A stretch of DNA of 64,000 bases. Origin: Psammoneis japonica (taxonomy: Eukaryota). Shown here piece by piece: positions 32,843-55,779 of this stretch (the stretch's first letter is position 1; every line of letters starts with the position of its first letter). The stretch covers positions 248,001 to 312,000 of the forward strand of contig QPGO01000073.1 in the NCBI GenBank assembly GCA_008632985.1. The letters are read 5' to 3'. The position numbers and the translations under genes are program-made. Below the pieces are notes generated by a model that saw nothing but the letters and a program-made list of their open reading frames with translations, searched no databases and had not been told where the DNA came from.

Positions 32843-33374
32843 TGCCACTGAGTTCCATTTTCTGAACATGACATGTTTGAGCAGCACAAGGTGGTGTTTT
32901 GACAAAACACAACTCAAATGGCACATTGCCTGTTGTGGCAGCACATGTTTTTTCAAAATGCTGTCGTGCAAAATTCATGCGTTTTGAGCAGAATTCCCAC
33001 ACAGTGCTGCGTGTGAACACTTGTTTGTCTGTCTCCCCGCGGCTGCTTTGCTTTTGTTCCCATGTTGTCAAAGCAAAACCATCGTGATCAAACAAACATC
33101 TGCAGAGGAGCAGATTGCAGCATCTTTGCCACGGAGCCCTTGCCAAAAGATTGGTTTGAGAAGTTGCGCTCTGAGCTCATGTCCAATGAAATGTGTCAAT
33201 GCAGACCGAGCTGTTGGCGGTTGGATGGATTGCGGGCAGGTCGGTCTCGCGCAAAATTTTGGAATTTTGAGTTAGGCTGGCGTGGCATCGTAGGAAATGT
33301 ACGTGCTTCTACGCTTTGGCACACCGCATTCCGTTTCCGCCGCAATTTGACCCGGTGCATGGAGTTGAGACGCC

Positions 33375-35296
33375 ATGGCAAGCCAACAAGAACAAGAGCT
33401 TACGGCAGTTGCACGTGCATCTTTTGATGCGTGTGTCGTGGTTGAGGAAACTGGAAAGGTTGAGTTTGCCAATGATGCTGCTCGAGAAATGTTTGGTGAA
33501 ACGCAAGACATGAATGAAAGTCTCATTTTTCTCAAGAACGACGACTCGCAGACGTCATGGGAGGAACTTCAAAGAGTGCAACATACAGAGACCTTTTCTG
33601 TCGAATTCAAACGCGATAGTGAAACTACAGTTTCAGCGAAAGCGCGATTGGCATATATGGGATCTCTTCACTTGTCTTTTTCCGCCCAAACAAAGCAAAA
33701 ACAGAGGACGCGGCGGCTTCCCCTTCACAGGCACTCGTTGCAGGTATTTTGGAGGCAGCGTTGGACCCACTCTTTCAGGTCAGTCAGCATGGCATTATCC
33801 AGATGGTCAACACAGCAGCAGTAAAACAATTTGGATGGACAAAAAACGAGTTTATTGGGAACAACATTAGCATGATTATGGGAAAAGAACATGCGGCAAA
33901 GCATGACGGGTACATGGCACGATACATTCGTACGGGGGAGAGCCGCGTCATGGGGAGCAAACGGGAGTTGCCGGCTCGTCGAAAGGATGGAAGTGAATTC
34001 ACAATACAACTAAGTCTTGTGGAAGTTCCGGTGGAAAAAGGAGAGGAGCGTACCTTTTGTGGTTTCGTTTTCGATCTAACAGAACACAAGAGACACGTGA
34101 ACGAGATTCAACGACGAGAAACGTTCACAGACACAATCATCGAAGGGTCCTACGACGCGCTGTTGGTGACAGACGAAGAGGGAAATATCATTCGTGTCAA
34201 TAATACGGCTGAGAACAAGTTCATGACGTCGGGAAGAAATGATTTGCACGGCAAGTCTGTATTCACGTTTCTTAATCCGAAGGATGCCAAGTGGCTCAAG
34301 GATCAAATGGACCAGTCCTCGACCGTGGGTATTCCCATGACGGTTCAACAGGAGGTGAGTGTCATGCTTCCGAATGGAAAGACGCGTCCGGTAATGCTGG
34401 GTGCGTCCGACGTGGAAGGGCTCCTCGGCGAGCCTTGTTTTGCACTCTACCTTCACGACTTGACAGAGCAAAAGAAGAGGCAAAAGGTCGAAGCTGAAGT
34501 GCGCGCCGCGGAGTGCCTGCTGTTCAATATGCTTCCAGAATCAATTGCTGATCGCCTTAAGGATGACCCATCTCATATTGCAGAGAGCCATAGATATGCT
34601 GCGGTGCTCTTTGCGGATATTGTCGGCTTCACAACCATGTCGAGCCAAATGGAACCCTGCGAGGTAGTCGCTATGCTCAATGAGCTCTTTTGTATATTTG
34701 ATGGACTAGTTGACAAATATGATCTGAACAAGGTCAAGACTATTGGTGATTGTTACATGGTCACGACTGTCCCTGGAGTCACTGAGGATGAAGAGGAACA
34801 CTGTCGGCGCTTGTGTCATTTTGGTTTGGATTTGATTTTGGAGATCAACAAGTACAACGCAACAAATGGACAAAATAGAACATTGGATCTCCGAGTTGGT
34901 CTTCATTGTGGTCCTGTTGTTGCTGGTGTAGTAGGCACGAAAAGGTTCTTGTACGATCTCTGGGGCGATGCTGTAAATGTAGCCTCTCGAATGGAGAGTA
35001 CCGGAGTTCCTGGTAGAGTTCAGACCACTAAACACGTCGCTGAACTCATGGAGGATGATTTTGACTTTGAACGGCGTGGTATGGTGCAGGTGAAAGGAAA
35101 AGGTGAAATAGAGACTTTCTTTATTACGCAAGGAAAGAAGGAGTACGCGCTCCCGGAGTTTGACTTATCAAGCGCACGAAGACGTCGCAGTTCCATCTTC
35201 TCGGACGAAGACAGTGCAAGCCTCCTCAAGTCGATTCGATCGTTTGAGTCCTCTCTCTTGGAGCGCCTTGACGATTCGCTTGCCGAAAACGCGTAA
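33375..35296 (+). CDS. PAS-PAS-PAS class III adenylate cyclase (1-bp deletion near 33670)
   Basis: VLFADIVGFT, KVKTIGDCYM, YDLWGDAVNVASRMES; Lys/Asp specificity residues indicate ATP. FixL-like PAS (HAAKHDGYMARY..TGE...RKDG). The paralog has ggatcttttgcac versus ggatctcttcac here. Confidence 0.9.
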
Positions 35297-35515
35297 ACCA
35301 TAGGTGAGATCCGAACAGGATCCAAATTGAAATGTGTAGCTGCTCCTTTGAGTCGTCGAGAAAAGTCGAAAGACTCATCTGCACCGTTGACTGTTATTTG
35401 TAGGACTATTCGATTCCAACTGAGAAAATCTGTGCAGCAGTCGAGCAGTAAATTGCAAATAGCAAACCTTTTGCTTTTGACAAGGCCATATCAACCAAGT
35501 CGAGTGAAATGAAAC

Positions 35516-35640
35516 TCGACGAGTAGTCGCCATGCTCAACGAGCTGTTCAGTTCTTTCGACAAACTGGTTGACATGTATAGTTTGAACAAGGTCAAAACT
35601 ATTGGAGATTGCTACATGACACCACTATCCCTGGTGTCAT
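35516..35640 (+). pseudogene. Short duplicated fragment of the cyclase catalytic domain
   Basis: gagtagtcgccatgctcaacgagctgttcagttc...aacaaggtcaaaactattggagattgctacatg matches ~34660-34775 and ~38850-38965. Confidence 0.85.
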
Positions 35641-36061
35641 CGGGATAACTCAGAGCACTCTTGGCGCACGCGATGATGTTGCTGAAAGCGACTAAGCGGT
35701 TTTGGGGTCCGAACTTGAAATGCGATTCTTCCCTACTACGACAGAGAGAATTACAGCGCTACATCCTATACAAACATGCTCAACGTACAAACCGTAGATG
35801 TAAAGCATCTACAATAATACGCTGAAAGACTAGACTACTCGCACAATTCAAGGTGCGAAACGCTCATTTCCCGGTTATTTCGATTGGACCTTGTGGACAG
35901 CGGACGAGAGCTTTAGGAAACATTCTGACAAGTAGAAAACGAGACACCGGGCTACTATTAGCTATAGGTATGCATTCGGACACGAAATATCCAGATACTT
36001 CAGTTCAATGCCAGTGCCTGTATCTCCTGGATGAGAAACGTCTCAAGACAATATATCTTTT

Positions 36062-37153
36062 TCAACGTCCTGAGGTGAATCCTTCTGGTGCCTTTCTTTT
36101 TCTGGAGTTCGCCGCCAAATTGATCAGGTCAGGCTTCTCGCGGAGCACAGAATAGATCAAGGTTGCGCCTTTCGACTCATGGGTATAGCAGTTAATTTTG
36201 CCAAACAAGTGGGCAAAGAGACAAGGATGGAAGGAAGTGCACTTCAAGAGGTCCTGCTTGATATGAGCCTCCATCAGGCGAAACGTGACGGCTCGATGAT
36301 TTCCTTGAAAGGAGCGAGTGGCGCAATCGAGAGGCATCTGCCCGTGGATGTTTTTGTGATGCAACGAAGCGCCATGCTCCAACAGAACTTTTACCAAGGC
36401 AGCATTGCCGTTGCTGCTAACAAGATGTAGTGGTGACTCACACAAACGAGTGGGTAGTTCCGGGTGGGCTTCGTTTTCCAGAAGCATGCGAACAATGTTG
36501 ATTGCTCGACTCTCGCATGCATGTAGTAAAGGCGTCCGAACGCTGCCATCATAAGCATTCACATTACAACCTAGTTCAACCAACAAATATGCCATCCTTA
36601 CGTTTTGCTGGGCGCAAACCAAGTGCAATGGTGGAAGTCCTTGCCTATTTGTAGCTTCCAAATCAGCGCCATTCTGAACAAGGGCTTCGACCACATCTTC
36701 ATCATTTGGGCGCAGCATCTGACACGCAAAATGCAAAGGTGTTTGACCGCTCCAGTTTTTTGCGTGTATGTCAGCACCATTCTCCACCAGCAAGCTTATT
36801 AATTGAGTGTGGCCTGCACGGCATGCAAAAAACAGCGGGGTTTCCCCATCATCCATTTCGACTGCATTCACATTTGCATCACGTGACAAAAGCAACCGTA
36901 CAATTGATTCAAAACCAAGATGACAAGATACGTGAAGTGGTGAGGTGACATTAGACTGGCCCATAACATTTGCACCGTGGTCCAAGACCAGCTGCACCAT
37001 TTCGTGGTTTCCAGTGCGCACAGCCTCGTAGATTGGAGGTTGTGAACCCGCCGGAGAATTGATCAGCAAACGGCGAACCTCCTCCACATTTCCGTTTCTT
37101 ATGAATCGACGGAGATCGTCCATGCTGCAAGTGGCAAAGTCAGAAGAGAACAC
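36062..37153 (-). CDS. Ankyrin-repeat protein
   Basis: About 7 repeats (SPLH, GETPLF, GQTPLH, GLPPLH, RTPLL, ESPLH); C-terminal VLREKPDL...RKRK. Confidence 0.9.
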   Translation of the reverse strand: MFSSDFATCSMDDLRRFIRNGNVEEVRRLLINSPAGSQPPIYEAVRTGNHEMVQLVLDHGANVMGQSNVTSPLHVSCHLGFESIVRLLLSRDANVNAVEMDDGETPLFFACRAGHTQLISLLVENGADIHAKNWSGQTPLHFACQMLRPNDEDVVEALVQNGADLEATNRQGLPPLHLVCAQQNVRMAYLLVELGCNVNAYDGSVRTPLLHACESRAINIVRMLLENEAHPELPTRLCESPLHLVSSNGNAALVKVLLEHGASLHHKNIHGQMPLDCATRSFQGNHRAVTFRLMEAHIKQDLLKCTSFHPCLFAHLFGKINCYTHESKGATLIYSVLREKPDLINLAANSRKRKAPEGFTSGR

Positions 37154-37543
37154 TCTCAGATAGAAACAACGCTCTGCATTCTACATCTGTGCACGCTTTC
37201 TTTCCTCGGCACCTCACCTGGGTACCGGTATCTTCACACCTCCCTCCCCATGCGCCTCGTCATCGCGTCGCTGCAAATTTTGGAATTTTGAGTTAGGCTG
37301 GCGCGTGTCGTAAGAAATGTCCCAAAACATGATTATTCTAAATCACATATACTTTTTAAAAAATATGAATTGCCCCAGAACACCTGGTATTGAATTTAGG
37401 TAACGGGTTTAACGTCTACATTTTTGGAATTTTGCACGTCGGCATACCTTGGCTTGGGGCATACGGTAGTTTCGCGCCAGCTCATCCCACAGGACCGTCC
37501 GTAAGCATTCGAGGGTATTCCGATCCCGCATAGAGCCAACACC

Positions 37544-39488
37544 ATGACTACCGGTAGTCGACAACAGGAACTTACGGCAATCGCACGTGCATCTTTTGAT
37601 GCATGTGTTGTGGTTGCGGAATCTGGAAAGGTTGAATTTTCCAATGACGCTGCTCGAGAAATGTTTGATGATGCGCTTGTCGACATGAATGATGAGGCTC
37701 TCATTTTTCTCGATAAGGACGACTCGCAGACGTCATGGAAGGAAATTCGAGGGGCAGAACATGCAGAGACCTTTTCTCTCAAATTCCAACGCGACAGCAA
37801 AACTGTGATTTCGGCAAAAGCCCGATTGGCATATATGGGATCTTTTGCACTTGTCTTTTTCCATACAAACGAAACAAAGCAAGGCACCGTGCCCTTCTGC
37901 AGATGCTGCCAATTCTCAAGCTATCGTTGACGGCATTTTCGAGGCAGCGCTGGATCCACTCTTTCAGGTTAATCAACACGGTGTCATCCAGATGGTCAAC
38001 AATGCGGCGATAAAGCAATTTGGATGGACAAGAAACGAGTTTATTGGGAGCAACGTTCGCATGATTGTGGGATCAGAACATGCTGCAAAACATGACGGCT
38101 ACATGGAACGGTACCTCCGTACTGGAGAGAGTCGCGTCATGGGGACCAGACGTGAGTTGCCAGCTCGTCGAAAGGATGGGAGTGAATTCACCATACAGCT
38201 AAGTCTTGTGGAAGTTCCGGTAGCCAAAGGAGAAGATCGTACCTTTTGCGGTTTTGTTATTGATTTGACAGAACACAAGAGACATGTGAGCGAGATTCAA
38301 AGACGAGAAACCTTTACAGACACAATTATCGAAGGGTCCTACGATGCACTCTTGGTGACAGACCAAGACGGCGATATCATTCGTGTCAATAATACGGCTG
38401 AGAACAAGTTCATGACGCCAGGAAGAAATGATTTGCACGGCAAATCCGTTTTCACGTTTCTTAGCCCGAAAGATGCCAAGTGGCTCAAAGAGCAGATGGA
38501 GCAGTTCTTGAGCGTGGGTATTCCCATGACGGTTCAACAGGAGGTAACTGTCACACTTCCGAATGGAAAGACGTGTCCGGTAATGCTCGGTGTATCTGAG
38601 GTGGAAGGACTATTGGGCGAGCCTTGTTTTGCCCTATACCTTCATGATTTAACGGAGCAAAAGAAACGCCTAAAAGTGGAAGCGGAAATGCAAGCCGCGG
38701 AATATCTCTTGTTCAACATGCTCCCTGCGCCTATTGCGGATCAACTCAAGGATGATCCGTCTCATATTGCAGAGAGCCATAGCTATGCTGCGGTGCTGTT
38801 TGCCGATATTGTCGGCTTTACAACGATGTCGAGTACTATGAAACCCGACGAGGTAGTCGCCATGCTCAACGAGCTATTCAGTTCATTTGATGTTCTGGTT
38901 GACAAGTATGATTTGAACAAGATCAAAACGATTGGCGATTGCTACATGGTCACGACTGTCCCCGGTGTAAGTGGGGACGAATTGGAGCACTGTCGGCGCT
39001 TGTGTCATTTCGGTTTAGATTTGATTGGGGAGCTCCACAAGTACAACACAGCAGACGGCCGGGACAGAACGTTAGATCTCCGAGTTGGCCTTCACTGCGG
39101 CCCGGTTGTTGCCGGGGTGGTTGGTACAAAAAGGTTCTTGTATGATCTCTGGGGTGATGCTGTCAATGTTGCCTTTCGCATGGAGAGTACCGGTGTTCCT
39201 GGGAGAATCCAGACGACGAAGCACGTTGCAGAACTCATGGAGGAGGATTTTGTTTTTGAAAATCGAGGCATGGTGCAAGTAAAGGGAAAAGGTGAAATCG
39301 AGACTTTCTTTATAACCGAAGGAAAGAAGGAGTACCAGCTGCCGGAAAACGACGAGTCAATCGCACGCAGGAGGCGTCGAAGTTCAAACTTCTTGCAAGA
39401 CAGTGCAAGCCTTCTCCAGTCAATCCGAGCATTCGAAACCGCAATCTTGGACCGTCTTGATGACGATTCGGCTATCGAAAACGACTAA
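37544..39488 (+). CDS. PAS-PAS-PAS class III adenylate cyclase paralog (frameshift at ~37870-37890)
   Basis: Collinear, highly similar paralog of 33375-35296; upstream motif aattttggaattttgagttaggctggcg is shared at ~33255 and ~37276. Confidence 0.9.
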
Positions 39489-40197
39489 ACGGTTCGTTGA
39501 TAAGAGAAACGCGAGAGTGGGCAGTTTTGCTTACTAGTAATCGTTGGATTGGTTGATTGTTGCTGCAGCCTTTTTTATCGAGAATTACCGTTAGTTATGA
39601 AGTAAATGCAAACGTCTATCATAAAAGCGACAGAGCGGTTAGAATAGGTTTGCTGTCACAACCCTGGAATGAAGCGATCCGGTCTCTTGTTTTCCTATTC
39701 TATGCAAGAACATGAACAACGGCTTTTTGCTGACGCACAGATGCGGAACAGGTCTATCAACGGGAAATTTGGACCTTTGCACCACCGCCGGCACAGCTCT
39801 GTGGCTACACAACCGAAATGGAGGAGATTGAAAAGTGTGGATAGGCTGGAATCATACGGAAAACTTTATGGGCTAGTATCGACAAATAGAAAAGATAGAC
39901 ACTTCTATGGAAAGCTCTACTAGCCAGTCGAACATATCGCCTTCAATAGAGTTCCCTACATAGTTCTGTTTTAAAATTAATGTCGTTGTGCTTGCCCATG
40001 TGCTTCCCCTTAATGTAATTATTTGGGCTTTCAATTCGTCATCTAACCCTCAATCAGGATATATGAGCTTCGTGGTCGCGTAGATCAGTCGGTAGTCCGT
40101 CGGTCATGCTTCGATACAGCCTTGTTTGTCGTAGCGTGTGATTCTTGTAAACGTGATGTGTGATGGATGCGTGATTTCTTTCGTATAAAGACAGAGG

Positions 40198-41273
40198 CTA
40201 TCGATTCATGGATTTGGCTGCAAAAAATGGGTCATATACATAGTTCTTGAACAAACTCAAAAAGGTCCCTTCTCCAATCGGCAAGACTTCATTGTAAAAC
40301 CACGGTAGTGTGCCCTGTGCGGGAGCATTCATCAAGACGCGGGAAAACCACTTGGGTGTCGTAAAGAAGGCTGCCATGCCGTCCTTGGCAAATCCCTCGC
40401 GAATAATGGAGCGATAACAAATCTTGCCGTGTTGTTGGGCATAATCCAGCGTGCGTCCCCACAACGCTTGTTGTGTAATGGCAAAGACGTTTCCAACAAA
40501 CATGTTCATACCGAGTCCATACCAAAAGACAGAAGACTGCGATTTGTACTCTTGTGGAAAGTACAGTTTGTAGGTGATGGGTGTCAAAACAAAGGAGGTT
40601 TGACACATGATAATGTTGCGCGTTGCATTGGGAAGAAAGGCTGGACCCGCAGCGCTCTGTAGCTTGTTGAGTTTCATGCTGGAAACAACTTTCTTAAATT
40701 CTTTTGGCCAAAATAACGCTGTACCTCGGCACGGTTAGAAACCTTACTCTCAAAGCTGGCAGAGAGAATGGGTGCCAGAAATGTTTTGAAGCAAACTTGA
40801 CTTGATAATCGAGCGGTTTCTTCTCTTCCTCCTCGGGAGAAAGCATGAGCTCTTTGCCGTATGCGACTGGTTTGACTCCCATTAAGCTGCTTAGGGAATG
40901 ATCGAAAAACTGAAAGGCACATCCCATTACAGAATACTGCAAGAACCAGGCAGTGATAGACGCCGGTCCCACCACCCTGTAAGGCGCCAGAAAACCCTCT
41001 GAAAAGGTAAGTCGGATAGCTTGCTGAAACGGATTCTTGCCCGAAACCTGCGACGAATTCATGTACAGTGCAATCTTTCCAGGGCATACCGAGGAATCGC
41101 ATGGCGACACCAAACAAACCAATCCCGGTGGAACGATAAATCACCGCGAGAGGCTCGACCCACGCCATGGGCATCTGCAGCGTCCGGACTTGAAAGTCAA
41201 TGTTGGACTCTCGTCGTCGAATCAACGCGGTCTTGCTGCGGCGGGGAGATGGAGGAGAGGATGAAGATGCCAT
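40198..41273 (-). CDS. Hypothetical membrane protein, possibly a divergent mitochondrial-carrier-like protein; fragmented over three ORFs
   Basis: ORFs 40674-41420, 40694-41122 and 40198-40677 each contribute protein-like segments (EPLAVI, FLAPYRVVGP, YRSIIREG..KDG.AAFF..KWFSRVLMNAP). Confidence 0.5.
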
Positions 41274-41390
41274 GGTGATACAGGGACGAATGTCGAATTT
41301 ATCAGAACCGTGAACCGTCACAACAAGCGTCGTGCGTCGTCGCAGGATGCTCGGGTTCGCATCGTGGCATTCCACATCGCTAAAAAAATG

Positions 41391-42840
41391 CTGACACGAT
41401 TTTTCTCGTCTGTCAATCACTCGCCCCCAAATTGTGATTGGAGCCAGGTTCCATGGCTCCAGGGTGCTGCTTGAGAGATTAACACTGGGCTCTATCTACT
41501 AGCTAGTGCTAGCTAGGCTAGAGTAGCAACTAGCTCTAGAGATCTAGTCTCTAGAGTAGAGACTCTAGCAGGGCACTCTGCTGGCCACAGGAGACTGCTT
41601 CTGCCAAGCCCCGGGAGCGCACTCTGCCACCAGAAATTGCTGGCTGCTGCTTCTGCTCATGATGGAGTGCCGGCACAAGATGAAGCAATTCTTGAAGATG
41701 TACACTACAACACACAGTTAGGCCTAAGTTGAAATCAAACACAACGCATTGTCTCTTTACCTCGCTTCTCAGAATCAACTTGTGGCAGAAGCAAACGTCG
41801 TTTCGAACGCGCTCGGCACACAAAGACATGCAGCACAGTTGTCAACATCCAAAAACATTTTCATTTTGCATTCCAGCCTCAAGGAGCGACTCCCAGGGTG
41901 CAAATCCATTCACCATTCGCTTGAAGATGTTTTTTGGAGGGCATTCTTTCACTTGTCCATCGTCTGGGTCGATGTGCCGAATGCAAACGCCCATCCTGAC
42001 GCTTTCCGGAGAACACATGTGGAAAAACTCATCCATCTCAAACTCAATGCTTTTGTCACACATGCTTGGGATGTCAGGCATCACTGCAAATTCAAACGTC
42101 ACCTTGGCAGAATTGCCGCAGACATCGGACTCCACAGCACTTGCGGCGCACACGCAATCAGAGTCATTCCTCTGACACCACTTTCTGTGTCCACGCACAA
42201 GTGCAGCACGTTGTCTTGGAGGAAGCAACCCGTTTCTCCGTCATGGTCTCTGGATGACGTCTCATGATTAGACTCACAAGTTGCAAAGCTCGCAAGAACG
42301 TCGTCGTCGCAATGCTGCAGTGGACTTGTGCCACAGTGTCTTGACTGGCCGAAAAGCCAAAACGAGCATCCGCCGTCAAATCCAACATGACCCACCCCTT
42401 GTTTTTGTTGGCATCACGAGAAGAAGTTGGGCAATTTGTCGTTCCACTTGAGGCAGGAGGCATGTTGTCACACACCTCAATTGTCTTGGTTTCAGACACC
42501 TCATTTCCAGCTGCGTCAGATGTGTTCCAGAGGTCCGAGCAAGCATGTGACTGTTGGGACAAGCACCGTCATCCCGCAGTTCCTCAATGTCAACCTGGCC
42601 ACCAAAGCACGGGTCATCATCAAGTGCCAGGACCGTCTCCAAGGGCGGCACCCTGTTGACGGGGAGGCTTTCATCCGTGAAACCATGCAACGAGAAAAGT
42701 GCGGGATTCTTTGTGTCAGCTTTGGGTGCATTCACGTTAGGATCAAGGCACTGTTCTGCCGGCCATGGTCTGGTGCAAGATCCTGAAACTCCCGGGTTGC
42801 GGTCACACGTCTGCCAGCAGCTGTCGCCTCCATCATGCTG
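41391..42840 (-). pseudogene. TpA-converted duplicate of 44413-45842 (3' end and downstream flank of the large Cys-rich gene)
   Basis: Collinear direct duplicate offset by ~3.0 kb; multiple frameshifts; Tyr codons changed to His/Cys (DNVLYLYMDTE vs DNVLHLCVDTE). Confidence 0.95.
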
Positions 42841-44734
42841 CACTCGATTTTGGGGGGATCAGTGACTCCAAGAGAGGGGGGGAGGGGAGAGGAGAAAGAA
42901 GGAGGAAGAGGAGAGAAAGGAAGGAGAGAGGAAGGGGTTGAGAGGGCAGCGAGCTTGATCTAAAATGCGGAAGTGGTTTGAAGAGCGATCCTCACTTCTT
43001 TCTCACCCGATGTGTCAGATCTCCGGGTGCTCGCATGTTAAAGTAATTTGGTGTGGTGACACCGATGAGACATTGTAGTGTTGAAGTATCTCTAGTATGA
43101 ATTTTACGTAGAAATCTACGCAATTCAGGAGTTTCCCTCCGACACCAAACAAAAAATCGACCATGACAGCTGCAAGAGCCGGTAGTCGAAATTGTCGCCG
43201 TCACTTGTGATAATGCTGTGACAACAAAGCACGCATTAAAACTCTCTCTGATAAATGAATATACGAAAAGAGAGGTGTGAAAAACGTGAAAAATGGATAA
43301 GAAATGCCTTGGTACTTTTGCCATTTTTAGAACTCGTCTCTCACTCTTGCGTTGCAATTTCTGTTCGTTCTTGACAGATTGAAGAGCCCTCCTTTAAGTA
43401 TCGAGCATTAATGGCGTCTCGTATGCTGATGTTTTGTATTTCAATCGTTGTGGCTCCAGTCGACTCTTCTCCAGTCGTCAATGAGGGTTTGCTAGTCATC
43501 GGGGTGGCGTTTCAGGATTTCTACAGTGTCGCTGCTTGCGGCGTTGCCGCAGGTGCCATTGACACGCGACTTGAAGAGATTGATGGCCATACATTGATTG
43601 TGGGTGCGGTTTGTGTCGTTTTTCAATCTACAATCTACCACTTTGGCTGGAAAAGTCCGCGTATGAGCGGCAGACGAGGTTGCCCTCGTCTTTAAATAAC
43701 ACGGGCCACTGCCGAGGTTGCTGACTGCAGCAGCGCCTCGGCAATTTTTTTCTGCAATAATGTTCATGTGGCCCCACCTCTGAATATTGAGACGGCTGAC
43801 GAGAGCCAAGGGGTTGCTCCCCGGTAAGGCGTTGACTGGTGCTTCCAAGGACGGGAGTGCCTTCAACCGCCGCAGACCCGAATCTCCGTTGCGATAGGGT
43901 TCACCTGCCCTCAAAGGTGGTTTGGATTGTTAAAGTTTTGCAGCTGGGTGGCACAGGGAGCAGGTGGCACTGGATCAGCTGTGCAGGAGCATGGGAGTCT
44001 ACGGTGTTGGAGCAGCTGGTCGTGGTTCTGTTGCATTGCAAACGTTACTTTTGTCCTAGAGTTCATCTCTGTGGCATTGTTTCTGACTTCAGTCATTAAC
44101 AGCGTGTTCCATAGGGCACGCAAGTACGACTGCTGCTGCAACTCTTACGACCACTGCTGCAACTCTTGTGACTACTGCTGTTGTTGCGACCACTGCAACT
44201 CTTGCGACCCCTGCTAAAAAAAAACAAAGGTTGTTGATGCTGTTGGAGCGCAGGAATCGGCAGCGTTGATGCAGCTAGGCAGCACGGTACTCGGTGGCAT
44301 TGGAGCAGCCAGACGGTGAAGTAGGCGGCAGTGTTTGAGTAGCTGGGCAGCATGGGAGTCGGTTTGGACAAGAAATAAAATAGTGAATTATAAACTCATG
44401 GCTGAATGAAATCTGACACGATTTTTCTCGTCTGTCAATCACTCGCCCCCAAGATTGTGATTGGAGGCAGGTTCCGGGGAACCAGGGTGCTGCCCTCACT
44501 CTACTCTAGAGAGAGTAGCTACCCTTGCCACTCGAGAGACTAACACAGGGCTCTATCTAGTAGTAGCTAGTAGCTACTGCTCTAGGGCTGCTCGACATAC
44601 TAGCTACAGGAGACGGGAGTGCACTTCTACTAGAAAATGTCGACTGCTGCTTCTACTCTAGATAGTGTACCGGTGCAAGATGAAGCAATTCTTGAAGATA
44701 TACACTACAATATATAGTTAGGCCTAAGCCGAAA

Positions 44735-47700
44735 TCAAACACAACGCATTGTCTCTTTACCTCGCTTCTCAGAATCGATTTGTGGCAAAAGCAAATGTCG
44801 TTTCGAACGCGTTCGGTACACAAAGATATGCAGCACAGTTATCAACAGCCAAAGAACATTTTCATTTTGCATTCCAGCCTCAAGGAGCGACTCCCAGGGT
44901 GCAAATCCATTCACCATTCCGCTTAAAGATGTTTTTTGGAGGGCATTCTTTCACTTGTCCATCGTCTGAGTCGATGTACCGAATGCAAACGCCCATCCTG
45001 ACGCTTTCCGGAGAACACATACGGAAAAACTCGTCCATCTCAAACTCAATGCTTTTGTCACACATGCTTGGGATATCGGGCATTGCTACAAATTCAAACG
45101 TCGCCTCGGCAGAATTTCCGCAGACATCGGACTCCACAGCACTTACGGTGTATACGCGATCAGAGTCATCGCCTCTGACACCACTTTCTGTGTCCATGTA
45201 CAAGTACAGCACGTTGTCTTTGAGGAAGCAATCTGTTTCTCCGTCATGGTCTTTGGATGACGTCTCGTGATTATACTCGCAAGTCGTAAAGCTCGTAAGA
45301 ACGGCGTCGTCGCAGTACTGTGGTAGACTTGTGCCACAGTCGTCTTGACCGGCCGAAAAGCCAAAACGAGCATCCGTCATCAAATCCAACATGACCCACC
45401 CCTTGTTTTTATTAGCGTTACGAGAAGAAGTTAGGCAATTTGTCGTTCCACTTAAGGCAGGAGGTATGTTGTCATACACCTCAATCGTCTTGGTTTCAGA
45501 CGCCTCATTTCCAGCCGCATCAGATGTGTTCCAGGTCCGAACAAGCGTATAACTGTTAGGACAAGCACCGTCATCCCGCAATTCCTTAACATCAACCTTA
45601 CCACTAAAGCACGGGTCGTCATCAAGTGCCAGGACCGTCTCCAAGGGCGGCACCCTGTTGACGGGGAGGCTTTCATCCGTGAAACCATGCAACGAGAAAA
45701 GTACGGGATTCTTCGTGTCAGCTTTGGGTGCATTCGCGTTAGGATCAAGGCACTGTTCTGCCGGCCATGGTCCGGTACAAGATCCTGAAACTCCCGGGTG
45801 GCGGTCACACGTCTGCCAGCAGCAGTCGCCTCCATCATACTGATTCTCCTCCGTGTTGAGATCAGGGTCGCAGAATCTGTCACCCGCTTCTTGCAGTCCC
45901 CGTCCGCGTTGCTCAATCCTCTCCAAGGAACGACCTCCACTGCCGCTGCCTGCGCACTGCTCGCTGCTGACGGGTGTCCCGACAACAGATGGGTCCAAAC
46001 AATACATGGTGGCTGCATCGCAAAGGTTCAATGGCTCCCAGTCGGTCTCGCCGTCGTTGTTTTCGGGTTTCATGCAGGTGTGCATACAACAGTCACCCCC
46101 GTCATACTTGCACTGCGGAGTATTCCATGGGCCTCCATTGCAAAAGCCGTTGCCTGTCTGATTGAGCCGACGTTCGGTTCCGTTCGTGTCGGACGGATCC
46201 AGATCAAGCGATAAGAGCTGCTCGCAAGTGAAATCATCATACTGAGGATCTGAATAGTCAATGGGCTCTGGTTTCTCCACGCAAGCATCGATCGACGTTT
46301 GTCCAACCTGCAATGTGATTCTTCCATCCGGACACACCTCGCACGACTTGCTACCATACCCGGCTGCATAGGAGTTCACAGGACAAGGCTCGTAATGGTC
46401 CAATCCTCTGCGAGCTGTGTACGTCCCTGGACCGCACAGATCGCAAGATCGCATGGCTCCCGTCCTGCTGCTGTACGTGCCAGCTTCACAAGGGATGGCG
46501 CCGGTGCCCTCGTCTGAGTAGAACCCAGGCAGCACTTCGACACAACGCGTGCTTCCTTCGTCTATGGTTTCCGTTCCGGCGTCACACTCTTTGCACTGGA
46601 TTGCTTCTCCCTTGACGTCGGAGTAATGATTCGGTGGACACAAAATGCAACCGCTTTGTCCATCAATGGGTTGATACGTCCCTTTGTCACAGAGGTCGCA
46701 CTTGGCGTTCCCGGTCCCTGTTGAATACGATCCAGCCACACAAATCTCGCATCTAGTTGCCTTGGCTTCGGAATAATATCCTTCCTGACAGGCTTCGACT
46801 GCGGCCATAGAGGAGTTTCGATAGCTTCCAGCTTCGACGGGTTCGCAGAGGCCTGTCTGCATGTTGAGGAGGGGGTGGAAGCCTTCGCCGCAGCGGCACT
46901 CGTAGTCGACCCGAAGTGCCTCATCGTCTGGGTGTCCGATGTCTTCTGGAGATATTTCACAACTATCCTCCCCATCACAAGCGGTATACGCGACCGTCTC
47001 CTGCATAAACCCACTGCCTGTCTTGACTTCCAGCACGAATATCTCTCCACCTTCAATTGTGGAGCATTCGTCAAGGCTTGCAGCTTTCAAAGGTCCGTTC
47101 GCCTCCGAGAAAGCAACATCAGTACGCACGTTTGTTCCCTGTTCTGTCGTGTCTCTTCCAACCTCGAGGCAGGTGTACTCAACAGTAATTCCGTCGCATT
47201 CTTGCACGGTGCATGAATCTGTCTTCTTCCCATCACAATCCTGGCGAGCTCCACTCAGACAAGCTTGTCTCTGAGTCCACCGGGCGGTGTGTGTCTCTCG
47301 CTGTTCGACGTAAGATCCTAAAACTTTACTAAGAGCTTTGTACTCATCAGCGAGGTGATTGCAAGCTTCTGAAGGATTGGCGCAGTTGTTTAGTCTTGTG
47401 AATCCCTGTTTCGCACATGCACATTTTAAATCCTTTTCAAGCCTTTTATCCATTTCAGTTGAGATTTTGTAACTGTTGGGGACAGTTTGACAACATGCAG
47501 ATGGTGAGGGAGCGCCACCTGGCCCCGTGCAAAACCTGGTACAAGTTCTGTAAATTTTCTCCATTTCTTTCCTAACTCCATTTCGCTTTCCTTTGAGGAA
47601 GGCAAGCATCAGATCGGCTGAGTCCCATCCATTCACAGATGGCTCGACGCTGGTGCGATACTGGCAGAACAGCGGAATAGAAGGTTTGAACGTCGGGTCT

Positions 47701-49610
47701 GCGCAAGGATACCCGTACAAGAGGCTGTCGATGGCGATGATGTCCTTACCAGACGGTGAGCAATTCATCGTCCCTCTGTCAGCTGTAAGCCAGTAGGGGA
47801 GTAGGTCGATCTCTTTGATTTGATCTGAAGAAACACAGGTGTAAAACACAGTCAGCGAATTGAAAGTATCCTGCTCAAGCCCGGGCATTGAGTTCTCGGG
47901 TTCTGAGATGAACCTGTCAAAGGGGAATCCGTCGCATGCTTGCGACCCAAGGAGGCTGGCATCGATTTCACAGCTGTTTACGTCGGTGTCGCACGGGAAA
48001 ACAACCTTTCCGGTTATGTCGTCGGAGCCATCCAAACACAACGCCGTTCGGCGAACAGCCTTGATAACCAGCGGCACCGTTTCAGTAGGACAGGTCACTG
48101 ATGTTTTCCAAGTCGTGGACGTTGACATGCGGTATTCCAGACCACCAAAAAGCGTCGTGTCAATATTGCCCGAAGTGTCAAACACGCCAGCCCAAGGATC
48201 AAAGACAACCTTTTCCATAAGGCCGTTCAGAAGGTCGAAGTGAGGGTCGATGTAGCGGGCCAAAAAATCCGTGGGAATGATTTCGGGCATATTGACATCG
48301 ATATCAGCCAACTCGGGTATGTCCAGTTCTTCTGCTAGATAGTCAAGAATGTCCTCCACAATCTCATCAGGATTGATATGTAGCTCCTTCAAAAGCGCTT
48401 CTGCAAATTCATACACCATGTCTTCCAAATCACAAATGGCTGTCAATGCGTCCGGGCACGCCAAGAACGAGAACGCGCTGATTACCACGTCGAAGGCTTC
48501 GAACAATGGAGCAAAAGGTTCGACCGCTCCACCAACTTTGTTGAGGGGAACCTTGATATCTTCAACGAACGACTGAACGGCCTGGTAGGCTGGTAGAATT
48601 GTGTCATCTAGATACGCGTCGATTCTTTCCATATCCGTGTTGAATCGTTCCAAAGGTGGTATCGCCTCGCTGAACTTTTCGAGATCAAAAGTGCCCGTGT
48701 AGCTCAGCCTCCGGTCCGAACTGTGGCTGCCACCGGTGGAATCGTAAAACTCTTTCAATGTCAGCCCTTCTAGTTTGCGAGAATGAAGCTGAATCAAACG
48801 ACGAATAGTTCTACGAGCCTCGGGGTCCTTGACGTCGTCCAAGAGAGTGGTAAGAGCCCTCGCAGCGTCAGTATCGGGTGTCACAGTCCCGTCATCGACT
48901 CGAAGATTGCGGCGAGACACGGCGTCTTCGATCTTCTTGAAAAACGCTTGGACATTGTTAACGGTGCAAAGACTCTCATGGACTCCGTAAAGCGCGGGCC
49001 GCAGAGCATATCGAAAGACGCTGTTTATTAACCCCTTGCATTACACAGAATGAAGCAACGTGTTAGTTCACTTCATAATACGAAAAAATAGAAAAAAGAA
49101 TGCGTGGTGTATGCATTACTTACGAGTTTTCCGACGGCCTTTACAAAGTACCGCTGCATTTTCGAGTTCAATTCGCACTTTTCATCCAGTTTATTTTCGA
49201 GTTTCACAATTTTTTCGGCGAATGTTTTAAATGGCTTTAGTCGCCTCCCATACTTTTTGATGTAAGGAATTTTCACCGAGATACCAATGGCATTAGCAAC
49301 TTTTTTTCAATGCCCTAGATACCTTGACGATTTTCCAGACGTCGCTAGCATATGCCGCACAAAACGGAGAAGCCGAAAATTTCATAGCTTCCACGATATA
49401 AAAGATCTTGAAATTCTTGTAGTTCGAGTTGTAAATAAACATTGGCTCCTCAATTTTTCGAATCCATTCACCGGCATCGCGTAGATCCTGAGGCCCATCT
49501 TCGTCAAACTCGCAATACGAAAACCCGGTGTCGTCAGTGGCCTGACCCAAGCTCTCGTTCAAACTTCCCATAGCCACAACGGCGAGCAAGAGAAGGACTA
49601 GTCGCTTCAT
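44735..49610 (-). CDS. Large secreted/surface Cys-rich protein with ephrin-receptor-like (GCC2/GCC3) repeats and Notch/LNR-like modules, multi-exon
   Basis: Signal peptide MKRLVLLLLAVVAMG at 49610; 1346-aa ORF 44880-48920 with CxxCxxGxY repeats and two YDGGDCC modules. The true C-terminus is uncertain (44880 or 44735). Confidence 0.8.
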
Positions 49611-49809: not shown

Positions 49810-52800
49810 ACCATGTTAAAAGCTGATGAGTCTTCCGCACTGCACACCAGTGTCACAACACCACCAAAGACAATTCAAACGGGGGGGGGTCAATGCATCG
49901 TCGCAATTCCAACATCGACCATTGCACATCATCACATGTTGATGGGTCCAACGGCTTCTTTTTATGGTGAAACAAAACCCCTGCAACTTGGTCATGACAT
50001 GATGTGGTGAGGCAGCATCAGAGTGCAAACAACGCCATTGCATCATCGTCATTGTGAGTGTGGCATGCATGGATGCTGCAGGTTGCTTCACAAATTTGAA
50101 CGAGCTGACCTCCGGGCAAATCCTTGCCTCCGGGTGTCTGTTGTCCCCACTTCCTCTGCAGTGCTTGGCTGGCTGTGCACCAGCCATTTGCACAAAATTG
50201 CTGAAAATTGCGGCATTGCATGGCCGGCGGTGCACCAACTGCATTTTGAGGCTTGTCTTTGATGGTCGATGTGTCAGCAATGCAGTGTGTCTTAAATGAT
50301 CTCATCGCTTCAGACAACAAAGCAAACATTGAAATTCATCCTGCTCAGTTTGTGGAGTTTGATTTGCTTGGTGTGTGTCATCAAAAAAGACATTGGTTTT
50401 TGCTGTTGCAAAATCTCTTGCTGCACCTTGGTTTCTGTGTCAAATCAACCAGAGAAATTTGTTGCTGCTTTCCCCTGGGCACAACCGCATGAGTCCGTTT
50501 TTGGAGTCATTTGCTGTTGACAGAAAACCTGACTGGCACCAACCAAACAAGAAGACAACAAAATGTGACTGAGTTTGAAGAGCACAAGGAATTGGCATTC
50601 CCAGATGATGATGATGATTCAAGCCATGAAAGCCAAAGCAGCACAACATCCATCGGCAGTCAAAGCAACTCATCCGATGAAAAAGAGGATGAGACTGCAG
50701 AATGGTGTGAGACTCCGTTTGGTCCTGGTGAAACGGAACTTCATTTTGGTGATGCTGAAGACACTTTTTTGAAGAACCACTTTGAAGAAACAGGACAGAT
50801 GAAACAAAACCTGGTGACCAAAGTGAGAACTTTGCACTTGCAGCAAGCGGCAACATCAACATCAAACATGCGCCATGAGCCAGATGAGGCAATGGCAGCA
50901 AATGAGATGTTCAATGTGCTGTTTGATCCTCTGTCAGTTTGTGACGAGTTTCTCGGTGCAATGAACACCAACCTGCAGCAGAAAGATTGCATCTCAGCAA
51001 TTTTTGCAGAGCTTCAAGCGTTTGTTTGGATCACATTGTGGCTCTGCTTCTGCAACAAGGGACCTGGAGAATTCATTAAATTTCCTGAAGACCACCCATC
51101 TGTCCAGAATGAAATTGACAAATTGAGTGGTGGCAGCCCTGCCAAAAAGCATGAGTGCCTGCATCATCTTTTGTGAGGAGTTTGGAAAGAGACACCCAGC
51201 CAAGCCAAATGTCATCAATGACTTGGTGCCCTGTCTTTGACTGTGATTGGTCATTGGAAATTCTTTTTTTGAAATGAGGGGTGAAGCTGCATCAAGCATC
51301 TGCTGCATGCCGGGGAAGACTCAGCTGGTGACAGATGATGACAAGCTTCGCATGCGGTCTTTCTTGTCAGCAAATGTCTTGCTTGCAAGGAGCAAAGAAC
51401 TTCACTCATTTGGCCCAGCATGCAATTCTGTCAATTCCCTTGCCACTGGTGCAGAGCTTTCAGGACACATGACACACAACTCAAAGAGTGCCACAGATGC
51501 CCTTAAAACAAATCTTCTCACCACATCTGGGCAGCAGAATCCTAAGTTGAGGCAGTTTCCGGACACAATGACACTTGGAGATTGAGGACATGGTGATGAT
51601 GACAGCAACAAGTGTTGTGATCTCTTGGAAGCAACAGACTTGGACACAGTGAACACCATGAAACATGGGCCAAACATGTCATTTGAGTTTGGTGAGACAG
51701 GACACAAGACAAGCCTCAAGCAGCATGTGACGTGTTCCAGCTCTAGCTAGGTGGGACCTCGCACTACTGAACTGTGACATAATTATTTTTTATCATCCGT
51801 CGTATGTTTCGCACGTACATTTCTACGTGTTCTATTATAAAAAATTGTTCCACACTGCCTGTTTTGCGAAGCCAAAGGCTTTCTGTTATCTGCACTTATG
51901 TCAATAAAAATGCGCTGGGTATATTCTTTAATGTCTAAAGAATATACCCGGGCATACTGTAAAGAATGTACTTCAAGTGTGGAGGAGGAGATACGTTCGC
52001 AAAATTGCCTCTTTTTCTGTTGGCGATCATTCACATATACATTGCTTAATAATTTTACTACGGAGCTCGCACGTAGAATTCTACGGGCCCAATGTCACAA
52101 AAAGTCCCACCTAGGACTGGAACCCGTCATGTCATTGTGGAGGGCGGACCTGCCATTGCAATCAGCGCACACAAAAAAGTGGGTAGAATGACACTGTGTT
52201 TGACAGCTTGGCAAAATGGAGCAGGCCGTGTTGCATTTCTGCAATCTGCCAAGCCACAGCTCAGTGCATCACAGGTTGAGTGTTGAGTGAGAGTGTTTGA
52301 GAAGTGAGCTTCCCCACCCTGAATGTTTTCACTCAGCAGCAAGTGGCAGCATGCATCATGGGGGCCATGGACATGCTTCCAATTGCTGGATTTGCTGGGC
52401 AAATCTCTTTGTGTGGAAACATGAAAGCAAGGCTTGCTGGAGTGGTTTGTGCCATGATTGTGGTGATTGACTTCCACTCTGTCGCACCACTTGTTGCCGA
52501 GGTTGAGGAGCGGACCATCTGTGACAGAAATGGATCTGCTTGAAAATGTTCTCCACATCAAATTGCAGAACGACCCACCACCAACTGATCTCTCTCATTC
52601 AACAAAGTCAATTTTGCATCTCTCATGGGACTCCAAAGAGATGAGCTTGCACACATTTCAAGGTCGCGTGGTCATCCTGCGAGAGGTGCCAAGGCTGTCT
52701 TGGTGGACAGGATTCACAAAGGACCAGCCAAGCATTTGGAGCCAACTGGGTTTGAATCGTTGGTTAAGAGAACCTTTCTGAAACTGCTGCCCGACAAAGA

Positions 52801-54290
52801 CAAGAGTGCCCACAAGCTCGGATTGCTCAATGAATGGAAAGTCTGGGGTGCAATTGGCCCAATCCTGTCTGACCATTTCGAGTGTGACTTGGCAGAGCTG
52901 AACAAATGTGGACTTGTTGGTTGGCAACATTCCAACTGGTTGGCAACGTCACCAGACGGATGGATCACATGCAAATCTTGCCCCCCCTTCCTGCACGGAT
53001 GAAAGTGGCAGAGCTGATTCAAGTCTGAGTGACCGACTCTGTGCTGGATCAGAGATGAAGTCACCTGCAGGAAAGGACACAAAGAAACTCGTCCAGTGAC
53101 ATCAAGATGAGTTTGGCAATCATTCAATGCACAAATGTGATGATGCTCTTTTCAAGGCGTTGGTTTGCAAACTGGAGTGCCGAGTCCAAGTGTTGCATCA
53201 TGCCGTGGTTTGCAGCTTTGAAAAAGTTCTGTTCATGGTGGCCAATGAATGCAAACCAATGTTCTCTGTTGTGGTGTCTTTTTGAGAAGACCAGAAATGC
53301 AACTGCGAGACTTTGTCATTTCAAACACATCAAAGGGACTTGGAGTGGGTGCACACAACAGCATGGGACAATGAGTCGAATCCAAAAAACCACAGGCCAC
53401 ACCAAGCAATGCTCACAACATTGATCATGACACCATTTTGTTTCAATGCGCAATGTGGCACAAGCTGCTTCTAAAAACAAGTGCAGCAAGAATGCCACTG
53501 CCTGTGGCAAAGTGCATGGTGTCATCCATTGCAGCTTTCTGTTGGAACAAGGGAAAGGGAAGGATTGATGAAATGAGCCAACACTTGTTGCTCCACATGA
53601 TGTGACACATTTCATGTGGAACACCAAAGCAGCTTTTGAGTCTTCAAGAAATTGAAAAAAATGTCTCTCTGAAGAAGCAATGTCATCATTCCTTCCCAAA
53701 AGAAGCACCCAAAGGAAGAACACTGTGTCAGATCAAGCACGCACTTGACAAAAGAGAAGGGTCTGTCACAGCTTTTTTGAGTGAGCTTGCTGCCACATGC
53801 ACCACAGTTGCACAGATGCCTGCGACACCTGCGTCTCCATGCACGGCCTTCCACACACCAGTGTAGAAAGCTGTGCAGAATTTTTGCATGAAAATTGACC
53901 AATTTCATGGTCAAACGATGAGTCAACTGCAAGATTCAATGGGTCTCTCGAATTCAAATGTCTTGGTCTGATTTTGCAAAACACTTGAAACACACAACAC
54001 TGCATGGCCGGCCGTGCACTGTGCACTGGGAGTGGGGGCAGGTGTGCTGCCGTGCCACAGCAGAGTCGTCGGGCACACAACGTGCGCATGTGTGGGGCCT
54101 TGCCCTGCACATGACAACATCGTGCCAGGCAATGTGCCGGCCAGGAGACCTCCAACTGCATGGACCGCCACACGTCACCCATGCACTCCCTTCCCTTCTC
54201 TCTCTGCTTGCAAGCCTCACACTCCACTCCCTTGCCTGCTTGCTGCCCCAACAATGCCTGAACCCTGAGCAGTTCTGCCTCATGCTGCAA
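49810..54290 (+). mobile_element. Decayed DNA transposon block with DDE-transposase-like and YqaJ/lambda-exonuclease-like remnants
   Basis: Acidic N-terminal region (50511-51176); LVTDDDKLRMRS; GD*GH (probable GDRGY) at ~51577-51591; CGLV...WLATSPDGW, EMKSP and QVLHH at ~52905-53200. TpA-depleted except for the nested MITE. Confidence 0.55.
51729..52128 (+). mobile_element. 400-bp MITE, unconverted TA-rich copy
   Basis: Terminal inverted repeats GACG(T/G)GTTCCAG...TAGGTGGGAC...TGTGACAT; flanked by ATGT on both sides; perfect 14-bp-stem hairpin at 51917-51949. Confidence 0.9.
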
Positions 54291-54297
54291 CGCAAAT

Positions 54298-54694
54298 GAC
54301 AGGTTCCAGTCCCAGGTGGGACTCCGTGTGACATTGGGCCCGCAGAATTCTGTGTGCAAGCTCCGCAGTAAATTTGTTCTGCAATGAAAATGCACATGAT
54401 TGCCAACAGAAAAAGAGGCAATTTTGCGAATGCATCTCCTCCTCCATGCTTGAAGCACATCATTGACAGTTTGCCCGGGTGCATTCTTCAGACATTGAAG
54501 AACACACCCAGCGCATTTTCATTGTCACAAATGTTGAAAACAGAAAGCCTTTGGCTTCGCAAAACAGGGAGTGTGAAACAATTTCAGAGAACATGACATG
54601 CAGAAATGCATGTGCATGACATGTGACACGATCCAAAAAACCATTGATGTCACAGTGCAGCAGTGCCAGGTCCCACCCAGAGCTGGAACGCGTC
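54298..54694 (-). mobile_element. Full-length, TpA-converted copy of the same MITE (inverted)
   Basis: Aligns end to end with the reverse complement of 51729-52128; flanks are caaat / taaat. Confidence 0.9.
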
Positions 54695-55520: not shown

Positions 55521-55779
55521 ACCAACTAACCCGCTACTCCACCAAACTACAATCTCAAACATCCAACCCCAACTCGAAATCCATCCCTTTTCCTGCCTAC
55601 ATGACTCAGTCCGTGCAGTTCCACCTCCGCGTCTGTCCCTTCCCCCGTGCCACTAGCTAGTTGCACGTGAACTCCTCACGCGCGCGTACGGTACTACTAC
55701 CGTACATACGGTAGGTAGTTTCCCTAAAACCCATGATAACTTGAACTGCCAACAATAACGTCGAGAATCATCGAGGATC

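Follow-up and report, generated by a model that had tools for sequence, protein, structure and literature searches.

In the literature that we searched, TpA-specific A:T>G:C hypermutation of nuclear DNA is the subject of one report, by Mettrop et al., on mutation-accumulation lines of the chlorarachniophyte Bigelowiella natans (bioRxiv 10.64898/2026.01.13.699255). According to the sections of that preprint consulted here, two integrated viral regions received 231 of the 302 new substitutions; nearly all of these were A>G or T>C changes, and every such change lay on TpA. Substitutions arose there at about 6e-7 per site per generation, and only some lines were affected. The larger region exists in a single copy and is transcriptionally silent, and the authors proposed an ADAT2-like adenine deaminase acting on DNA. 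The terms "diatom", "stramenopile" and "CpG" have no occurrence in the same portion of the preprint text (bioRxiv 10.64898/2026.01.13.699255). Here we describe a locus with this signature in the diatom Psammoneis japonica. The window analysed throughout is a stretch of 64,000 nucleotides (assembly GCA_008632985.1, contig QPGO01000073.1, positions 248,001 to 312,000, forward strand). It contains a gene for a cysteine-rich Ephrin_rec_like protein (gene B), whose 3′ end (copy B) has a partial duplicate close by (copy A) in which nearly every TpA has become TpG or CpA.

Fungal repeat-induced point mutation (RIP; cf. RIPCAL, PMC2621366) changes C:G to T:A, usually at CpA, raises TpA, lowers G+C and mutates both copies; it depends on a RID-type (DNMT4-like) methyltransferase and on the premeiotic stage. 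The genomes of many diatoms contain genes for DNMT4 proteins that are relatives of RID, the enzyme of fungal RIP, with function unknown and no mutation process described in the sections consulted of a paper that also treats diatom transposon methylation and the DNMT families (PMC9998398). Among animal deaminases, ADAR acts on double-stranded RNA with a preference for a 5′ U, and APOBEC acts on single-stranded DNA (as outlined in the passages used of bioRxiv 10.64898/2026.01.13.699255).

A repeat search and a self-blastn of the window recovered copy A and copy B as a direct repeat with ~3.0 kb between the two starts (coordinates of all features are collected in Table 1). This is the same pair that had been pointed out in a preliminary description made from the sequence letters. 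The copies are 86.3% identical across 1480 columns by blastn, and in the well-aligned section, 41624-42840 of copy A, 1215 aligned bases carry 105 differences with 6 gap columns (91.4% identity). Copy A comprises the final ~320 codons of gene B plus ~490 bp of 3′ flank, without the upstream part of the gene, and matches residues 1067-1374 of gene B at 55% (tblastn). The affected DNA is therefore host-gene sequence, as had been claimed, since copy A derives from the Ephrin_rec_like gene. Gene B carries the Pfam domains PF07699 (E=5.8e-20) and PF23091 (E=2.7e-9). Its best matches in the protein collection reach 28-44% identity, no close orthologue suited to polarisation at the DNA level was found in that collection, and polarity was read at the protein level.

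Copy A is a pseudogene: the first ~1026 codons are missing, invariant residues are lost, and 68 of the 317 codons compared differ from copy B, 47 of them non-synonymously and 21 synonymously, a split that fits a dead copy. These features bear out the earlier label of a broken copy, while breakage by indels is partly doubtful. Five small indels separate the copies in the assembly, and read contigs add one base after 41853 and one after 42337, so that at least one or two of the five may stem from the assembly or from haplotype variation. In their non-coding left part both copies contain a microsatellite-like stretch that is rich in CTAG/CTAC and partly palindromic (41480-41570 and 44500-44590); there the alignment splits into indels, and the majority of the TA in this stretch is kept in copy A.

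Alignment of the copies and counting of substitutions by dinucleotide context, a check proposed in the preliminary description, gave a one-sided result for TA (41:0) and a skewed one for CG (22:6). Within 41624-42840, 41 sites are TA in copy B and TG (24) or CA (17) in copy A, with no case of the reverse (two-sided binomial p = 9e-13). Another 22 sites are CG in copy B and CA or TG in copy A, against 6 of the opposite kind, and transversions between the copies number 13. Along 44761-45842 of copy B, 34 of 36 TA are altered in copy A, 32 of them to TG or CA, and no TA is gained, so the signature described for B. natans (A>G or T>C at TpA, with TpG or CpA as the product) is present at 32 of 36 TA. 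In the same section 20 of 68 CG are altered, and the remaining dinucleotides are altered at 4-25%, mainly as neighbours of a changed TA or CG. Copy A keeps 7 of 12 aligned TA opposite 44413-44623 of copy B, 5 of 15 opposite 44624-44760 and 2 of 36 opposite 44761-45842; left of its TA-free core, conversion is partial over 41507-41758. The non-coding part of the duplicate behaves in the same manner, with 16 of 30 aligned TA of copy B found as TG or CA in copy A and none of 14 aligned TA of copy A found as TG or CA in copy B. The two TA in 963 nt of copy A compare with 27.9 per kb in the unduplicated part of gene B (Poisson P = 8e-10). Neither the base preceding the T nor the one following the A differed clearly between edited and unedited strand, so that beyond the 5′ T itself no preference for flanking bases was seen. 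These counts agree with the preliminary description, whose example substitution strings were every one found in the alignment, and which had stated that nearly every TA right of ~41800 is converted, to both TG and CA, that CG goes to TG or CA in the broken copy, and that the process is asymmetric, the open-frame copy keeping its TA.

Public sequencing reads comprise three runs, all of a single sample and study and on an unrecorded platform; the assembly was probably built from them. They bear on a technical explanation, in which copy A would be an assembly duplication or haplotig of copy B, or would carry base-calling or polishing errors at modified bases. Long-read base callers can miscall modified bases, and the window departs from the read contigs at 42440 and 42442 as well as at the two single-base indels after 41853 and 42337. 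Against such an origin, the letters of copy A, its TG and CA included, were carried by read contigs built from exact 31-letter words at depth 46-62, equal to copy B. Two alleles were seen, at depths of ~28 and ~33 (the alternative to the reference allele at 28.1 of 61.3). Depth equal to copy B together with two alleles makes copy A a real diploid locus, neither collapsed nor a duplicated haplotig. Contigs of one run reach 315 kb, which suggests accurate reads, and the 9% divergence between the copies includes transversions and indels. The assembly artefact considered in the preliminary description is excluded by these A-specific contigs at B-like depth with two alleles, and a technical origin in the wider sense is highly improbable. 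Read contigs covered copy A except over the bins 42002-42168 and 42670-42836, and no contig among those listed bridged the junction with the spacer. Alternative letters on copy B at 45703, 45714 and 45736 equal those of copy A, on a contig that begins directly after a difference between the copies. Their reading as alleles of copy B was rejected in favour of paralogue bubble-popping, and an X2 contig backs the copy B of the window.

Taken as a pairwise comparison, TG or CA in one copy and TA in the other is exactly the product of fungal RIP, and a conventional RIP-like C>T change at CpA could have acted on the gene copy, with TG/CA ancestral and TA gained in copy B. Four independent lines of evidence are concordant in the opposite sense: gene copy B is ancestral, and fragment A lost its TA. 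The observed/expected ratio (obs/exp) of TA is 0.04 in the coding-equivalent part of copy A and 0.10 over 41624-42840, compared with 0.56-0.63 in copy B, 0.48 in the unduplicated 3.1 kb of gene B and 0.53-0.56 in the flanks. Since the level of copy B is like that of the rest of its gene and of the flanks, copy A, ten times lower, is depleted and copy B is not enriched. The 7 TA remaining in copy A are all TA in copy B as well.

At six invariant columns of an alignment of the C-terminus of gene B with four distant homologues where copy A departs from copy B, copy B has the conserved residue at all six. The changes from B to A are Y216 (TAC>CAT), Y271 (TAC>TGC), L170 (TTA>TCA), R269 (CGC>TGC), T139 (ACG>ATG) and C47 (TGC>AGC), so the residues encoded by TA-containing codons of copy B are the conserved ones. 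This protein-level outgroup is opposite to an ancestral TG/CA state and agrees with the preliminary description, in which the gene copy was ancestral and TG/CA derived. For the 9 Tyr codons of copy B, copy A has codons for His (5), Cys (3) or Ser (1), with none kept; RIP in copy B would require all nine to have originated from such codons, in a copy that is still part of an open 1346-codon frame. The alleles of copy A give the same direction. At 42292-42294 copy B reads CGTA, copy A of the window CGCA and the alternative A allele CATG. One TA was hit separately to CA and to TG, and as TA alone is one step from both, TA is ancestral. At 42240, 42264 and 42303 one A allele has CG, as in copy B, and the other CA; wherever the two A haplotypes differ, at least one allele matches copy B. 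The fourth line is the 16:0 asymmetry in the non-coding part. An ancestral TG/CA state is therefore excluded, and we regard the chance that copy B acquired its TA by RIP as next to negligible.

We then compared rates of loss. Outside TA and CG, copies A and B differ at 22 of 856 bases (2.6%). Relative to this background, TA sites were lost at ~112 times the rate per base, a minimum, given the near saturation of these sites, and a comparative figure rather than one per generation. CG sites were lost at ~14 times background (13.6), with 48 of 68 surviving. A ~14-fold loss is the usual figure for methylated CpG. Altogether copy A lost ~94% of its TpA and ~29% of its CpG to TpG/CpA. The order of products along copy A also differed between the two classes. 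The 45 TA events (27 TG, 18 CA) form 15 runs where 22.6 +/- 3.2 are expected (p = 0.012), whereas the 25 CG events form 18 runs where 13.3 are expected, without clustering, and the CG product equals that of the nearest TA in 13 of 25 cases. Because the TA products are strand-clustered and the CG products are neither clustered nor coupled to them, we conclude that two processes share one territory: an active one that removes TpA in tracts, on a single strand at any one time, and an ordinary, scattered decay by which the same DNA loses CpG. The over-dispersion of TG versus CA in 200- and 400-bp bins was no greater in TA-free than in TA-normal DNA and was uninformative. The two A haplotypes are differently mutated at CG or TA sites; changes continued after they separated. 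Three other sources of such a spectrum were ruled out: GC-biased gene conversion by the few W>S changes outside TpA, polymerase-eta-type WA errors by the change of only 9% of AA sites, and a retrocopy of edited mRNA by the duplication of the non-coding flank and the involvement of both strands.

A second polarised pair was found in a ~400-bp repeat with a TA-rich copy and a mutated inverted partner. Between them, TA changed to TG at 17 sites and to CA at 5, with no reverse change, and CG to TG or CA at 10 against 1. The 17:5 ratio is one-sided (two-sided binomial p ~0.017, calculated by hand). Of 10 informative TA sites in two further mutated copies, 1542-1723 and 54311-54494, 8 have an identical product in both, and most CG sites differ between them, which places TA loss early and fast and CpG loss later. 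At least four members of this repeat family lie in the window; besides the TA-free ones (54296-54694 and 1542-1723) there are TA-rich ones at 51729-52130 and from ~63826 to the window end, which form sharply bounded islands within or next to TA-free DNA and look like insertions that postdate the mutation of their neighbours.

The same end state is widespread in the window. Across bins of 500 bp, TA obs/exp follows a bimodal distribution, with 37 of 128 bins below 0.15 (mean CG obs/exp 0.25), 84 at 0.35 or above (mean CG obs/exp 0.96) and 7 intermediate. No CG-poor bin has normal TA, and the Spearman correlation of TA with CG is 0.66. Blocks between genes with TA obs/exp of ~0.01 and CG obs/exp of 0.15-0.25 make up ~29% of the window. 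Their borders are sharp: up to 33273, for example, there is no TA for 1858 bp, then four within 40 bp. The G+C content of the blocks is 45-52%, compared with 48% for the window, unchanged because TA>TG/CA and CG>TG/CA offset each other.

The ancestry of the blocks was searched through their stop-free open reading frames (ORFs). No Pfam match above the curated cut-off, only weak ones, was obtained for 17 ORFs of at least 90 aa in 26.4-33.3 kb or for 128 ORFs of at least 60 aa in the other blocks and the spacer. The 347-aa ORF at 27035-28075 had no homologue among 1.84 billion representative proteins (phmmer), and two block ORFs had no viral relatives among IMG/VR viral contigs. When 18 intact ORFs of the window were compared with the window by tblastn, the sole further decayed gene piece was a 29-aa ankyrin fragment at 26553-26639. 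In TA-free DNA TGA is the only stop left, which produces long spurious ORFs of up to 347 aa (e.g. 27035-28078 and 53766-54518). The conceptual proteins of these blocks are rich in W, C, Q, H and M, and false gene calls are probably to be expected from them. A gene for a LarE-like PP-loop ATPase (25228-26313, minus strand; assigned to family TIGR00268 from the names of its relatives) adjoins the largest TA-free block, probably by coincidence.

This distribution could be imagined without any targeting, if TpA were hypermutable throughout the genome through a promiscuous deaminase, a modification of T or A, or a lesion, and if transcription-coupled or active-chromatin repair together with selection kept genes clean. 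Such a process would account for genes being TA-normal and intergenic blocks TA-free with borders near ORF ends, for the decay of promoterless copy A and the survival of copy B (taken as expressed), for the TA retained where copy A lies beside the following ORF, and for the fairly low TA obs/exp of the genes themselves (0.5-0.6). We consider it improbable, however, since stretches outside ORFs, such as 42962-44412 in the spacer and 39488-40674, have normal TA, and since a bimodal distribution has only 7 of 128 bins intermediate. In B. natans the activity was seen in 11 of 15 lines and in particular regions, which points to regulation, according to the part of the preprint used (bioRxiv 10.64898/2026.01.13.699255).

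Whether repetition itself is the trigger can be judged from the surroundings of copy A. In a repeat-triggered, RIP-like process, homology between A and B would expose both copies, and selection would have purged hits in an essential gene B. Several features are in keeping with this. The mutated territory coincides with the duplicated segment, on the left within ~100 bp (conversions from 41507) and on the right at its very end; intensity declines toward the edge, as in RIP; and hits lie in strand-coordinated tracts. With 47 of 68 differing codons non-synonymous, most such tracts in copy B would be deleterious, and up to 4 differences of the type TG against CA leave room for a few hits in copy B. 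We nevertheless think a repeat trigger unlikely. The 16:0 asymmetry holds in the non-coding part, where selection on copy B should be weak, and the duplicated part of gene B shows no TA deficit relative to the rest of the gene (0.56 vs 0.48). The spacer that adjoins copy A is TA-normal although its word depth of 640-1770, compared with ~57 for single-copy DNA, indicates roughly 10-30 copies (with loose ends at 42848 and 44400). Two tandem intact guanylate-cyclase genes are likewise unmutated, and their differences are symmetric (TA<>TG/CA 15 vs 13; CG<>TG/CA 27 vs 26). A TA-normal spacer and a symmetric gene pair mean that repetition alone is insufficient, and that it is not obviously what the process addresses. 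As to dependence on copy number, copy A is a duplicate, but the multi-copy spacer and the cyclase pair are unmutated. The hypermutated nucleocytoplasmic large DNA virus (NCLDV) region of B. natans is single copy in the portion consulted of the preprint (bioRxiv 10.64898/2026.01.13.699255).

The spacer occupies almost exactly the gap from the end of copy A (42840) to the start of copy B (44397). It has no recognisable ORF or terminal repeats, opens with a 100-bp purine-rich tract (42850-42945), and its 11 ORFs gave no Pfam match above the curated cut-off. The duplication may have arisen along with insertion of the spacer, as a long flanking duplication.

TpA-specific A:T>G:C hypermutation at this locus is copy-specific, tract-wise, recurrent and co-located with CpG decay. 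The best explanation of the whole is a territorial hypermutation of the B. natans type acting on the duplicated fragment A, to which we assign a probability of about 72%. A 1.45-kb segment with the 3′ end of the Ephrin_rec_like gene was duplicated, and copy A was severed from the promoter and the first ~1026 codons. The fragment would then have been subject to the same kind of locally targeted, TpA-specific DNA hypermutation as in B. natans, which is the component we hold with most confidence. Second in confidence, the address would be a chromatin or transcription state, that of silent and probably CpG-methylated DNA, and not sequence repetition. Third comes the chemistry, most likely an enzymatic deamination of adenine to hypoxanthine on one strand at 5′-TA-3′, the hypoxanthine being read as G at the next replication. 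An alternative chemistry is oxidised or modified thymine at TpA mispairing with G. CpG loss would be ordinary 5-methylcytosine deamination in the same silent territory, and copy B would be spared through transcription and active chromatin, to which purifying selection may add. A silent-chromatin address would explain why promoterless copy A was hit and copy B was not, why neither the multi-copy spacer nor the intact gene pair was touched, why blocks have borders near gene ends and a young insertion appears as a TA-normal island, and why TA is kept in the left 350 bp of copy A, beside the start of the next ORF (40674-41495).

Several points weigh against this explanation. The link to silent or methylated chromatin comes only from the co-occurring CpG loss and the position between genes. 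The left part of copy A (41391-41758) keeps many TA though duplicated, and the importance of its overlap with the start of ORF 40674-41495 is inferred. The evidence for strand tracts is moderate, with p = 0.012 in one pair and 17:5 in the other, and the up to 4 double differences could mean a few hits in copy B. The targets in B. natans are viral, and no viral or transposon ancestry has been shown for any block here. The reads are from one sample and study and are probably those of the assembly, so they are not fully independent of it. Lastly, the untouched spacer beside copy A is awkward for any view of the process as a defence against repeats.

TpA hypermutation is not categorically new, since the B. 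natans precedent exists. Within the literature searched, this is the first case found in a diatom, and the first found with a host-sequence target, with coupling to CpG loss and with near-complete erasure. The same signature in a diatom indicates a process that is old or recurrent in lineages of SAR (stramenopiles, alveolates and Rhizaria), and it shows that host sequence can be a target. The locus is an internally controlled natural experiment, in which the ancestor (copy B), the product (copy A) and two separately mutated haplotypes are found together. It gives direct access to polarity, context, relative rate, tract structure and copy-specificity. The coupling of TpA loss to CpG loss suggests that the address is silent, methylated chromatin. 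The TA-free blocks are invisible to scans based on G+C or on RIP indices, give no protein-domain matches and are full of spurious ORFs. Tentatively, and at odds that we put below even, diatoms and perhaps the whole of SAR may possess a DNA-level adenine editing of silent, CpG-methylated chromatin that erases every TpA in one-strand tracts. If so, editing would irreversibly disrupt codons for Tyr, Leu, Ile and Val as well as TATA boxes and poly(A) signals while leaving G+C unchanged, and it would affect any DNA in that chromatin state, the host's own promoterless gene fragments included. By the sample of this window, about a quarter of the genome would have been shaped in this way and missed by RIP-style scans because base composition is unchanged.

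Table 1. Features of the 64-kb window discussed in the text (positions within the window).
Feature	Position	Strand	Remarks
Copy A	41375-42840 (41391-42840 in the preliminary description)	-	Hypermutated partial duplicate of gene B, without promoter
TA-free core of copy A	41758-42961		Two TA left, at 42269 and 42738
Copy B	44397-45842 (44413-45842 in the preliminary description)	-	Duplicated segment within intact gene; ancestral TA and CG retained
Gene B	44880-48920	-	1346-aa open frame; cysteine-rich Ephrin_rec_like / ELAPOR-type protein
Spacer between copies A and B	42848-44400		Multi-copy repeat; normal TA (obs/exp 0.53); no recognisable coding
Control: tandem intact PAS-guanylate-cyclase genes	33391-35298 and 37563-39490	+	82% identity; both TA-normal
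Unmutated TA-rich repeat copy, ~400 bp	51729-52130		Sharp TA-normal island in TA-free DNA; 35 TA in ~440 bp
Mutated inverted partner of the ~400-bp repeat	54296-54694		TA-free
TA-free, CG-poor block	1-2000		4 TA, 15 CG; continues past the left end of the window
Small TA-free block	7387-8316
Largest TA-free, CG-poor block	26479-33273		3 TA in 6.75 kb of 26501-33250; sharp borders; ancestry untraceable
TA-free block	49963-51504
TA-free block	52184-55527		Includes mutated repeat arm 54296-54694
TA-free blocks	59355-60344 and 60498-63750

Other genes of the window were inspected as well. The control genes encode PAS-PAS-guanylate/adenylate cyclases; between them lie a 180-bp fragment of a cyclase domain (35492-35667) and an ankyrin-repeat gene (36062-37180, minus strand). 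A search of metagenomes with the cyclase protein returned only 3 short, distant loci (L001-L003). Two neighbouring DUF6824 genes (17986-19128 and 20628-21836, minus strand) with 44-59% protein identity and normal TA are another local duplication. A 699-aa open frame at 2980-5079 (minus strand) has no Pfam match and is composed of three to four repeat units, each ~550-680 bp long and 69-81% identical to one another. For two genes near the locus the best named relatives are diatoms: Cyclotella, Attheya, Skeletonema and others at 40-48% for the first, and Cylindrotheca, Epithemia, a Bacillariaceae metagenome-assembled genome, Odontella and others at 47-53% for the second, with environmental sequences closer (57-67%). 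Together with the DUF6824 genes, these relatives point to a diatom that the protein collection itself does not include.

Compared with known systems, the locus shares with the animal deaminases ADAR and APOBEC an A>G change next to a 5′ T or U, clustered strand-coordinated changes and a suggested defence role. It is unlike them in that the change is fixed in nuclear DNA, copied at the DNA level together with its non-coding flank, and in that the 5′ T specificity is near absolute. ADARs are not known from organisms other than animals. Decay of methylated CpG by 5-methylcytosine deamination resembles the CG>TG/CA component in the same blocks, which is ~14 times background, unclustered and strand-independent; it leaves the loss of TpA unexplained, and the DNA affected here is probably methylated.

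With RIP of ascomycetes the locus has in common dense transitions in one dinucleotide context, strand-coordinated tracts, the destruction of coding capacity, and confinement to a duplicated segment with weaker effect at its edge. The chemistry, however, is opposite, TpA>CpA/TpG instead of CpA/TpG>TpA, with no drop in G+C. As the preliminary description had noted, RIP typically hits both copies, whereas here, with the reverse direction of change, one of two copies was hit (41:0 overall, 16:0 in the non-coding part) and the neighbouring multi-copy DNA was left untouched.

The hypermutation of B. natans is the closest relative of what we observed. It differs in its host, a rhizarian there and a stramenopile (diatom) here, and in its viral targets, the polarised target here being a host-gene fragment. 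Its NCLDV region has a Rho of 0.45, while the blocks of P. japonica are near saturation (TA obs/exp 0.01-0.1) and have also lost most of their CpG, a dinucleotide absent from the sections consulted of that text. The evidence there is from de novo mutations and here is comparative, from a paralogue, haplotypes and an outgroup. The two systems are alike in consisting exclusively of A:T>G:C transitions on TpA that give TpG or CpA by strand, and they may also be alike in being independent of copy number, as far as the consulted part of the preprint goes. Both are confined to particular regions whose rate far exceeds that of other DNA (here ~112-fold over background, with sharp borders), and both have the appearance of a regulated or territorial process.

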